DNA of 64,000 nt from an uncultured Chitinophagaceae bacterium (GTDB lineage Bacteria; Bacteroidota; Ignavibacteria; Kapaibacteriales; UBA961). Made by a program: the position numbers. This document shows, piece after piece, positions 36,001 to 39,000 of the stretch. The stretch is taken from the NCBI GenBank assembly GCA_964527785.1, contig CAZGNO010000002.1, forward strand, positions 21,250 to 85,249, in the 5' to 3' direction. Position 1 is the first letter of the stretch. Each line of letters starts with the position of its first letter.

Positions 36001-39000
36001 AATGCGCTTACACATTCACTAGCTCACCTTCGCAAAGTAAATAATGAACTTGGCGGAGACAGTATTCACTCTAAAGCATTCCATGTACGGGATAATGTTG
36101 TTCCTGCGATGAATACGGTACGCCAAAATGCCGACGCAATCGAACGTATTATTGCCGATAAGCATTTCCCGATGCCGAGCTACCGTGAGATGCTGTTCGT
36201 GAAGTAAACGTTAGCTTTTTATTCATTCAAAAGCCGACCTTATCAGGGTCGGCTTTTGTCGTTAATGTCAGCTCCATGATAAATTTACCTAATCCCAAAG
36301 GGATGAAATTATTATAGATAAATAGGTGAAAAATATTTTAGAATCCTGAAAGGATGACATTATTTTTTGCTGCAAACTTCTTTTGTATAGAATTGTGTCA
36401 TCCCTTCGGGATTTATCCATTTGCCCTACCATTTTTCTATAATAATTTCATCCTTTCAGGATTATGGAATCAATTTCGTCCTACGAGTTATTATCAAATT
36501 TTCCTTTTGGCACTATCAGCAGATTTAGGTAGTTTTGTTTAATAAACGTGTAAGTAATAAAGACAGTCTCAAATTGACAATTACTTTTTCAAAGTTCTTA
36601 ATGAAACAGAGAATTTATATTGATACTTCAGTAGTAGGTGGTTATTATGACGAAGAATTCAAAGAAGCTACTCAAAAGTTATTTCAAAGACTTGAAAACA
36701 ACGAAGTGGTTTTTGTAGTTTCCGATCTACTGGAACTTGAACTAATTAATGCTCCGTTTCATGTTCGAGACCTTTTAAATAAATTCACTACTGATAAATT
36801 TGAAAGAGTACAATTAACTCAAGAATCGGTTTCTCTTGCTGAAATGTATATTAGTGAAAGAGTTGTCGGGAAAACCAGTATTGAAGATTGCAGACATATC
36901 GCTTTAGCAACAATAAATAAAGTTGATGTATTAGCAAGTTGGAATTTTAAACATATTGTCAATCTTGATCGTATTAGAGGATATAATTCGGTTAATTTAC
37001 GTCATGGTTATTCAATGATTGAAATTAGAAGTCCAAAAGACTTGGTAAATTATGAAAACAACTAAAAAAGAAAAAACATTTGACGCTGTATTAATGATGC
37101 GTGAAATTAGAGATAAAATAAGTGCTGAAACTCAAAATATGACTTTTGAAGAACTAAGAGCATATATTGATAAGAAACTTTCAGAAAGTTTGGCAAAACC
37201 TGTTGTTAATAAATAAAGTAACTTAATTCCAATAGTCTCTAAGAACTAGCAATACCCCCATAAGGATACAGCCATGCAAATCAAAGCATCTACATTCGAA
37301 GAATACATTGACTTACTTCCCGAAGACAGAAAAGAACCGATGATAAAACTCAGGCAAACCCTCATTGACAATCTTCCTGAAGGATTTGAGGAAACACAGG
37401 GTCCTTACGGACTTGGTTTTTGCGTACCGTTTTCTCTGTATCCTGCCGGTTATCACTGCGACCCCACTACGCCATTATACTTTATTAATATAATGTCGCA
37501 AAAGAACTATATTGCTCTCTATCACATGGGCATTTACGGCAATCCTGAAATCAATGAGTGGTTCGTACGTGAATACCCGAATCATTCAAAGCAAAAATTG
37601 GATATGGGGAAAGGGTGTGTCCGATTCAAGAAAATGGATCAAATTCCCTATAAGCTCATCGGTGAACTTGCAAGGAAGATTACACCTCAGAAGTGGATTG
37701 AGGGGTATGTCGGGCTTTTGGGGAAGAGGTAGAATGATCTTTTATTGTGTATTCTGAACTATATCATTATTTAATTTCCGTAGAGGTGGGTTTTAAAACC
37801 CACCTCTACGGAAATTTTTTTAGATGGATCGTTTTAGTTCATTTCAAAAATAATTCTTTCCTTAATTACTCCTCTCAATTCTCAAAATTCCCGTAACTTT
37901 GCACCTCAATCAACGATAACTTTTTTATAAAACTGAAAATCCTAATGGATAAATTTGTTATTAACGGTGGTAGGCGACTTTCCGGTCGGGTTCGCGTTTC
38001 CGGTGCGAAGAATGCCACGCTTGCTTTAATGCCAATGGTGTTACTCGCTCCGGGAGTATTCAGACTGCATAACACGCCGAATATCCGCGATGTATGGACA
38101 ATGTCGAGATTATTAGGCGACATGGGTGTTCATTGCGAACTCAACGGCGATGAATTATTCCTTGATTCATCCAACATCACAAGCCATAAAGCTCCGTATG
38201 AACAAGTAAAGAAAATGCGTGCATCAATAAATGTTCTCGGTCCCTTGGTAGCACGTTATGGAGAGGCACAGGTTTCGTTGCCGGGTGGAGATGCGTTCGG
38301 ACCGCGTCCTGTAGATTTGCATCTGAAGGGACTGGAAAAACTCGGTGCTGAAATTACCCTCGAAAACGGATATATATATGCTAAAGCGAATGGTTTGCGG
38401 GGAGCGAAAATACACTTTGATATCTCAAGCGTTGGAGCAACTGAAAATGTTCTTTCCGCAGCTGTTCTTGCAAGTGGCTCAACACTGCTTACCAATGCAG
38501 CTATAGAACCGGAGGTAACAGCCCTTGCTCGTCTTTTGGTAAAAATGGGAGCAAAGATTAGCGGAATAGGCACAAATACACTCGAAATTGAAGGTGTGAA
38601 GGAACTCCAACCGGTTGAGGAAGAAAATATTCCCGACCGTATTGAAGCTGCTACATTTTTGATTGCTGCGGCAATGACACGCGGTAAAGTAATTGTTGAA
38701 AATGTAAACCAATACCATCTTACTGCCGTAATTGCAAAACTTGAGGAAGCGGGCTGTACAATTGATGTGACCGGTAACTCAATAACTATTGAAATGGACG
38801 ATGCCCCACGCCCGACAGATATTACAACGGCTATTTATCCCGGATTCCCAACCGATACACAAGCACAATGGATTGCTTTTATGATGCTCGCAAGTGGCTC
38901 CAGCCGCATTACAGACTCGATTTTCCATTCACGGTTTCATCACGTTCCCGAGCTTCAACGGCTAGGTGCAAAAATTGAAATGCTGTCAAATAATGCGATT

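Follow-up and report, generated by a model that had tools for sequence, protein, structure and literature searches.

A GTAG-tagged, REP-like palindrome family in intergenic DNA of an Ignavibacteria-like genome and of Cytophagales

Four intergenic palindromes and their genes

We analysed a 64,000-nucleotide stretch of contig CAZGNO010000002.1 (positions 21,250 to 85,249, assembly GCA_964527785.1; hereafter the window), deposited as an uncultured Chitinophagaceae bacterium, in which a 34-bp palindrome bounded by CCGTAG and CTACGG recurs four times. The contig is metagenomic (ENA ERZ27284375, k119_142102) and the organism Ignavibacteria-like: SufS shares 89% identity with the protein of an "Ignavibacteriae bacterium" metagenome-assembled genome (MAG), homologues of its CDF protein are named Ignavibacteria or Kapaibacteria, and a T9SS sorting domain is present. 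All four palindromes lie between genes, as their name demands of repetitive extragenic palindromes (REPs), and the genes that flank them are functionally unrelated. Copy 1 is found 45 nt past a DUF1801 gene and 133 nt ahead of an EPSP-synthase gene, and copy 2 within the suf operon, with the stop codon of sufD 36 nt upstream and the ATG of sufS 47 nt downstream. Copy 3 separates converging ABC-ATPase and CDF genes, and copy 4 lies 152 nt upstream of the CDF start codon, 85 nt beyond an ordinary AAAA-stem-TTTT terminator hairpin (63006-63040) that belongs to the preceding TMEM260-like gene and is conserved in relatives. Coordinates are collected in Table 1.

The pattern CCGTAG-N22-CTACGG matches these four sites, each of 34 bp as the sequence-only reading of the window had reported, against an expected count of 0.00 in dinucleotide-preserving shuffles at this fixed spacing and of 0.03 for any gap of 10-40 nt; over that whole gap range the window yielded the same four sites and no other spacing. 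Together with their flanks they are the longest four inverted repeats of the window (arms of 20-25 nt), and as single-stranded DNA they fold into stable hairpins of -20 to -23 kcal/mol (z-scores -7.7 to -12.2), in keeping with the 20-40 nt hairpins of REPs. Neither a search allowing three mismatches nor a covariance model revealed a fifth copy in the window, and none was present in the 8.7 kb of contig past its end, giving a density of 4 copies in 72.7 kb of source contig. Successive copies are separated by ~10 kb, 14 kb and 1.1 kb with genes in between, an irregular spacing that rules out a CRISPR (clustered regularly interspaced short palindromic repeat) array. Rfam gave no match to the palindromes at the gathering score, and up to an E-value of 1 just spurious microRNA-hairpin matches far under threshold.

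The inner six-mers had been described as completely different between copies and mutually complementary. Positions 11-12 are GG in 4/4 copies and just positions 7-10 vary, reading AGGT, AATC, CGGT (mismatched) and CATA in copies 1-4. Complementarity held for copies 1, 2 and 4 but not fully for copy 3, in which cggcgg/ccaccg contains one C.A mismatch and GGC/ACC a second. The pairing noticed in the flanks proved both real and general, three adjoining flank pairs being paired in 57-61 of the 64 family copies described below. In all four copies the feet read CC-GTAG...CTAC-GG, the arrangement by which double-foot REPs are recognised, with GT[AG]G at the 5' and C[TC]AC at the 3' end of a long hairpin (Quentin et al. 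2018, BMC Genomics 19:475, PMC6006769).

Conservation and covariation across the family

To place the palindrome, the pattern CCGTAG-N7-TTT-NN-AAA-N7-CTACGG was scanned over one genome per species, covering 185,579 species; public loci retrieved for comparison, ~0.9 Mb altogether, carry L-numbers below. The scan returned 57 loci. They are concentrated in four MAGs, two of Cytophagales (CAVSOI01 and UBA2561/DDLX01) and two of Ignavibacteria (CALMMI01 and JACPWH01), with single matches in Raineyaceae, Flammeovirgaceae, Flexibacter, Spirosomataceae, Tunicatimonas and Chitinophagales. Metagenomes contributed 27 further loci, while viral contigs and a phage collection gave 0 matches to the pattern, and in a replicon of the cultured Bernardetia sp. 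Wsw4-3y2 (NZ_CP147018.1) a copy stands at 185375-185408, 37 nt after a peptidase gene. The description of the repeat as genome-specific was thus too narrow, since the family occurs in Cytophagales (Bacteroidota) as well as in Ignavibacteria-like MAGs.

Public genomes and metagenomes together provided 77 distinct matches. At the seven stem positions left free by the pattern, 35 of these had 7/7 Watson-Crick pairs, 20 had 6/7, 9 had 5/7 and 13 had four or fewer, and this bimodal count allowed us to split family members from chance matches, leaving 64 well-paired copies. Their consensus is (T/A)T-CCGTAG-NNNN-GG-GTTTGCAAAC-CC-N'N'N'N'-CTACGG-A(A/T), with a top block, from GG to CC, of GGGTTTGCAAACCC. 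Among the 64 copies 92.7% of cells are paired, as compared to 72.8% after shuffling and at most 47% in slid-partner controls; the covariation score of 0.487 (0.123 when shuffled) was reached by 0 of 500 shuffles. The four variable stem pairs, alignment columns 17-20, make use of all four Watson-Crick types, and at each of them 0-3 of the 64 copies are unpaired. Insertion into a terminator loop was considered as a possible origin of the long flank complementarity of L001, L040 and L052; as several CAVSOI copies carry the same flank CCATTT...AAATGG, the simpler view is that the outer stem belongs to the element.

Each genome has its preferred variant of the four free bases (CGCA in CALMMI, CGGT in UBA2561, GATA and AACA in CAVSOI), the variants being joined by single compensated steps with one-arm intermediates in L018, L005 and L029. 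Variants with a changed foot also exist, such as CCATAA...TTATGG in L010, altered on both arms. We suggest that the middle of the stem needs pairing alone and, because it need just pair, drifts by compensated single steps through CGGT, AGGT, CGTT, CGTA, CGCA, GATA, AATA, AACA and AATC.

This behaviour bears on the idea that the palindrome is a double-stranded operator for a dimeric regulator, with CCGTAG half-sites around a central GTTTGCAAAC. Its perfect two-fold symmetry, with conserved outer and central blocks, is what such a site would offer. However, the four unconserved positions are paired in at least 95% of copies and by all four pair types, and duplex binding gives no reason for unconserved positions to stay complementary; the sites also follow genes rather than occupying promoters, and the unrelated functions of the flanking genes do not suggest a common regulator. 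A duplex operator, already disfavoured, is therefore very improbable.

The sequence-only reading had named a specialised terminator class as one of two possibilities for the repeat, and this part of it did not survive. Copy 1 is the sole window copy with a clear T-run after the stem, and it alone was flagged in a terminator scan of positions 36000-55999, which cover copies 1 and 2; in the T-tract count copy 3 passes weakly, with none for copies 2 and 4. A T-tract follows the stem in 16 of the 64 family copies, whereas 48 have none on either strand. The ordinary terminators of the window (36228, 43616, 56370 and 63006) have A-rich 5' and T-rich 3' flanks, an order that the CCGTAG palindromes reverse, with TTT 5' and AAA 3'. 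The palindrome is not a terminator class, because most copies lack a T-tract and copy 4 stands beyond a normal terminator; as a terminator, copy 2 would also end transcription within the suf operon.

These same observations weigh on a broader alternative, in which the host selects the palindrome as a structural module of RNA or DNA (a terminator, an mRNA 3'-end stabiliser or a hairpin bound by a host protein) that is not mobile itself, has been multiplied by miniature inverted-repeat transposable elements (MITEs) and is kept by selection. Such a module would account for the T-run of copy 1 and of about a quarter of the family, and for a gene context in which 41 of 45 copies lie between tandem or converging genes (48 copies with long open reading frames (ORFs) on both sides: 26 tandem, 15 converging, 4 diverging and 3 in short doubtful ORFs). 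The absence of a T-tract from most copies, the reversed flanks and the positions of copies 2 and 4 are hard to square with it. Selection at the RNA level is also not apparent on the transcribed strand, where a small sample of mismatches shows no bias (G.U 6 vs A.C 5), a result that fits a DNA-level symmetric hairpin and gives no sign of strand-specific RNA selection. We regard a host-selected module as possible but unlikely.

Turnover at orthologous sites and carriage by MITEs

REPs are expected to differ in position between close relatives, and presence or absence of the palindrome varies at three orthologous sites, among relatives ~90% identical in protein sequence. The stop codons of the CDF and ABC genes are 154 bp apart in the window vs 29, 6 and 1 bp in L087, L089 and L090, all three of which are devoid of the copy 3 element (the CDF protein of L087 is 91% identical). 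Here the window reads stop codon TAA, a 126-bp insert, TAA, and then sequence that aligns with the L087 spacer, and the insert, a MITE, entered directly after the CDF stop codon. Conversely, a copy lies upstream of the Na/H exchanger gene in L087 but is missing from this site in the window, L088 and L089. Between sufD and sufS the copy is intact in the window; L091 has the same AATCGG variant minus its right foot together with a second intact copy, the copy of L093 has decayed, and L092 lacks one. At the copy 1 site the upstream gene of L091 is a different one, making this comparison uninformative.

The MITE copies around copies 3 and 4 are ~70% identical, in opposite orientations, and can be aligned over their full length. 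Both are bounded by common terminal inverted repeats of ~17-19 bp, reading TACGGATATA(A/G)(A/T)TTAAG in the 126-bp copy, and by TTA/TAA direct repeats; they contain no ORF, and the empty site of a relative is available for one of them. Full-length alignment, shared terminal repeats and TAA/TTA direct repeats identify them as two copies of one MITE. Copies 1 and 2 are solo: among the window copies just 3 and 4 share flanks, and similarity of the flanks of copies 1 and 2 to the MITE arms is at background. A TTCTGAACTATATC motif beside copy 1 resembles a MITE end in the wrong orientation, and we treated it as chance. The outcome that the sequence-only reading had set against itself, that the palindromes are fragments of a longer mobile element, therefore applies to copies 3 and 4, as cores of the 126-bp and 114-bp MITE copies, but not to the solo copies 1 and 2.

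MITEs carry the palindrome elsewhere as well. In UBA2561 the palindromes sit in a ~197 bp MITE with CTCTACCCTAC terminal repeats and a TA duplication, and in CAVSOI seven copies sit in a ~146 bp MITE with CATGTTACGCA terminal repeats, two of these being 98% identical at different places. The three MITE families have nothing in common except the palindrome. In MITE copies whose arms have diverged by ~20%, foot and top are intact and the stem is still paired. Solo copies in unrelated flanks are nonetheless present in every carrier genome, among them the second copy of L091 (position 2676) and most CALMMI copies, all short stand-alone units.

One could suppose that all copies descend from MITEs and that solo palindromes are the best-preserved cores left after the arms and terminal repeats decayed or were deleted. 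Copies 3 and 4, the UBA2561 copies and the seven CAVSOI copies, each a part of a MITE with terminal repeats, would be the intact stage of such a process. Yet the three families share neither arms nor terminal repeats and at least two made different target duplications (TAA for the window MITE, TA for UBA2561; that of CAVSOI is unreadable), so that they cannot be one ancestral element; the flanks of copies 1 and 2 resemble the MITE arms no more than background, and the L091 and CALMMI copies named above stand alone in unrelated flanks. We consider this origin distinctly unlikely. For the host-selected module introduced above, MITEs cut both ways: residence in three unrelated MITE families, and a foot, top and pairing that outlast the decay of the arms, would be expected of it, but solo copies in every carrier genome, present or missing at orthologous sites without any MITE, would not.

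Two independent public contigs end inside a palindrome copy, L059 at its start (window 47798) and L087 at its end (11975); perfect palindromes of 34-40 bp appear to break k-mer assemblies.

Table 1 Coordinates of the palindrome copies, of the MITEs that carry two of them and of other hairpin types in the window
Feature	Coordinates	Strand	Description
Copy 1	37773..37816	n/a	Palindrome 37778-37811 plus 5 paired flank bases per side; inner stem AGGTGG/CCACCT; centre TTTTAAAA
Copy 2	47769..47808	n/a	Palindrome 47772-47805 with AT/AT flanks; inner stem AATCGG/CCGATT
Copy 3	61736..61785	n/a	Palindrome 61744-61777 plus 8 paired flank bases; CGGTGG-type inner stem with two C.A mismatches
Copy 4	62882..62927	n/a	Palindrome 62888-62921 plus flank pairs; inner stem CATAGG/CCTATG; centre TTTCTAAA
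MITE copy around copy 3	61695..61826	-	126 bp (61698-61823), copy 3 exactly central; TTA direct repeats 61695-61697 and 61824-61826
MITE copy around copy 4	62848..62967	+	114 bp (62851-62964), copy 4 near centre; TAA direct repeats 62848-62850 and 62965-62967
Second double-foot GTAG...CTAC hairpin type	28255..28281	n/a	GTAGAGACGTAC-gct-GTGCGTCTCTAC; resembles the published Emticicia/Cyanothece REP GTAGAGACGTTGCATGCAACGTCTCTAC
Second member of that double-foot type	53027..53053	n/a	GTAGAGACAGGG-catt-ACCCTGTCTCT; right foot decayed to TG
Third palindrome type, degenerate member	32569..32604	n/a	AGACCTTGAAGGTTTTCGAAAACCTTCAAGGTCT; between converging genes

Relation to known repeats and a candidate enzyme

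Among the closest described systems are the double-foot REPs of TnpA_REP/RAYT (REP-associated tyrosine transposase) subclass 2.4, such as those of Emticicia oligotrophica and Cyanothece (GTAGAGACGTTGCATGCAACGTCTCTAC): these too have a 5' GTAG and 3' CTAC, form a fully paired long hairpin, are intergenic and occur in Bacteroidetes (Cytophagales), and hairpins of this very GTAGAGAC type are present twice in the window itself (28255 and 53027). The palindrome family differs from them in being longer (34 bp, at least 40 bp with flank pairs), in its conserved GGGTTTGCAAACCC top, and in having feet embedded as CCGTAG/CTACGG within a longer stem. Bacteroidetes RAYTs of subclass 2.6 have been described with "atypical" hairpins, and their flanking REPs, listed in Table S1 of the same study, include Pedobacter saltans CCGTAGAG...CTCTACGG and Runella slithyformis, with inner hairpin CGTTGGGATTACAAATCCCAACG (PMC6006769). 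As compared from that published table, the inner hairpin of Runella slithyformis GTATCCGTTGGGATTACAAATCCCAACGAGCG matches the L006/L057 members (CGTTGGGTTTGCAAACCCAACG) at 21/23 positions, the foot of Pedobacter saltans CTGTCCGTAGAG...CTCTACGG is identical to the 8-bp foot of copy 1, and the TT(G/A)CAAA loop recurs in these REPs, to which Flavobacterium johnsoniae (...CGGATTGCAAATCCG...) adds another. Unlike our family, subclass 2.6 REPs have a single foot or none and another overall length.

Likenesses extend to other repeats. REP doublets forming hairpins (REPINs) of Pseudomonas fluorescens, in which compensatory changes are common, also form long symmetric hairpins: their ends are conserved, their spacer varies by compensated changes, their variants make up a quasi-species-like cloud, and they are gained and lost between relatives (Bertels and Rainey 2011, PMC3116915). 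They consist of two inverted hairpin REPs and a spacer, ~71 bp or more, whereas the 17-nt arm of our palindrome (CCGTAGNNNNGGGTTTG) is not self-complementary, hence no hairpin itself, and there is no spacer; the palindrome was accordingly rejected as a REPIN. GTAG-tagged palindromes, SMAG elements among them, are likewise short, palindromic and intergenic (PMC3733652). With bacterial MITEs that contain internal hairpins, copies 3 and 4 share terminal inverted repeats, a 3-bp TAA duplication, a length of 114-126 bp and the absence of an ORF, but conservation across genomes resides in the central palindrome and not in the terminal repeats, and copies 1 and 2 have no MITE features. A literature search by the palindrome sequence returned no relevant paper.

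Taken together, GTAG/CTAC feet, intergenic sites, a covarying stem and gain or loss between relatives bear out part of the sequence-only reading: this is a selected or maintained structured repeat rather than a set of chance hairpins, and "REP-like" is its best description. We therefore favour, with moderate confidence, a REP-type double-foot repeat of intergenic DNA that undergoes gain and loss. A Y1-HUH enzyme probably acts on it, MITEs carry it at times, and transcripts may be affected incidentally. The unit is a hairpin of ~38-46 nt that either DNA strand can form when single-stranded, composed of a variable outer stem (usually TT/AA or AT/AT), the invariant CCGTAG/CTACGG foot, four free pairs and the almost invariant GGGTTTGCAAACCC top. 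Conserved foot and top may be the contact points of a hairpin-specific single-strand DNA enzyme, of which the likeliest candidate is a RAYT (TnpA_REP, Y1 HUH family) that would cut beside the foot and move or copy the hairpin. In vitro, RAYTs recognise GTAG as well as the palindrome, and some systems also read the loop sequence (PMC8266576), and a conserved foot and loop with a free but paired middle is the product expected of such an enzyme. Inside MITEs, where copies 3 and 4 reside, copies also spread passively. A role in mRNA, as a 3'-end barrier after DUF1801 or a stabiliser within the suf operon, is plausible but would be secondary.

Several results weigh against this interpretation. No RAYT is encoded in the window or in its 8.7-kb extension. 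The sole RAYT-like gene in the retrieved loci, L042:4312-4851 of the CAVSOI Cytophagales MAG, lies 120 bp from a palindrome copy; it matches NCBIfam REP_Tyr_transpos at 1.7e-20, its 73 bits falling a little short of the cut-off of 80, TnpA_REP 4er8 is its best match in the PDB, and its homologues are named RayT by their sources. Within L042 3232-5078 the flanks of this gene hold GCGTGAGACACGC hairpins (xxxGTGAGACACxxx type) in three inverted doublets, ~58 bp apart, and one doublet is split by a 146-bp MITE bearing the CCGTAG palindrome, and RAYT homologues in L094-L098 are accompanied by xxxGTGAG(G)ACACxxx or xxxGTGTCTCACxxx hairpins with genome-specific stems. As its own flanks and those in L094-L098 carry other hairpins, and the CCGTAG copy came inside the MITE, we rejected the L042 RAYT as cognate enzyme (a REPtron). 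In the Bernardetia replicon (200 kb of 601 kb) an IS200-like tnpA is present, and its flanking hairpins are unrelated to the palindrome. Moreover, the GTAG of the palindrome lies inside a longer paired stem, not at an unpaired foot, and copy numbers are low for classical REPs, which number tens to hundreds per genome: ~10-20 exact-pattern copies per related MAG (strict-pattern counts of at least 17, ~10 and ~11) and one strong copy in the 200 kb of Bernardetia. Finally, foot and TTT/AAA were fixed by the search pattern and poorly paired matches were removed before counting, so that conservation of the fixed positions outside the window is partly a product of the search.

These points leave some room for a self-contained hairpin module that moves across two phyla, has been taken up independently by at least three unrelated MITE families and depends on an enzyme other than the adjoining RAYT clade, namely a hairpin-specific single-strand DNA enzyme still to be characterised, or a subclass of RAYTs that reads the internal CCGTAG and the loop (TTTGCAAA) instead of a free GTAG foot. 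We think this rather unlikely.

Further hairpins and repeats occur in the window. In the second double-foot family (GTAGAGAC...GTCTCTAC) the inner stem is variable but paired; its 53027-53053 copy, which follows a 4HBT thioesterase gene, is orthologous to the copy at L093 position 2733 (the JACPWH relative), where both feet are present, one having been lost in the window. The third palindrome family (AGACCTTGAAGGTTTTCGAAAACCTTCAAGGTCT) has a similar GGTTTT..AAAACC top and no GTAG, with perfect 34-bp copies at L049 828, L091 7992 and L093 13392. Those in L091 and L093 occupy the same place after an FAA-hydrolase gene and are followed by T-rich sequence, with a clear T-run in L093. Four short hairpins at 56460-56775 (GGCAGGTGctaCACCTGCC, GCAGGTGtagCACCTGCC, GGCAGTTGttaCAATTGCC and GTCAGGTCGGTTGtaaCAGCCGACCTGAC) occupy a 450-bp spacer that separates the genes for E2 dehydrogenase and PfkB, and form a cluster that resembles the "atypical" hairpins flanking Bacteroidetes RAYT genes. 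Two further repeats lie at 53093-53498, in the spacer between the thioesterase and a periplasmic-binding-protein gene: one is inverted and imperfect (~294 bp, 70% identity), the other a 68-bp tandem repeat in 2.3 copies (53348-53498).

Among the genes, three large tandem paralogous ORFs, ~67% identical, occupy 7827-15210, and tandem EPSP-synthase paralogues (37945-39207 and 39416-40678; 78% nucleotide identity) follow copy 1 in an arrangement kept in relatives. At L092 6376-8537 two genes, one for an N6/N4 DNA methyltransferase and the other unknown, interrupt the suf operon and separate sufC from sufD. Upstream of the CDF gene, a motif gattacccaatgaaat...cgtccgca (~62745-62800, minus strand) is kept in the window and in L087-L090, the surrounding spacer not; it had no Rfam match and could be a promoter or leader element.

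REP/RAYT systems are well studied in Proteobacteria, and REPs are usually inherited vertically along with their RAYT. For REPs it is unusual to be nested repeatedly in unrelated MITEs and to occur in two phyla, as this family does. Published surveys barely describe REP/RAYT systems for the Bacteroidota-Ignavibacteria group and report no GTAG-tagged family there: a survey of GTAG repeats covers Proteobacteria, Cyanobacteria, Chloroflexi and the PVC (Planctomycetes-Verrucomicrobia-Chlamydiae) superphylum, with just CGTC-tagged repeats in Bacteroidetes and Chlorobi (Di Nocera et al. 2013, PMC3733652). REPs as such are already known; what is new here is the extension of GTAG-tagged REPs to Ignavibacteria-like and Cytophagales genomes. 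Palindrome copies could serve as strain markers, and the clear division of the hairpin, with foot and loop conserved and a middle that varies freely as long as it pairs, predicts the bases that a cognate enzyme would read.

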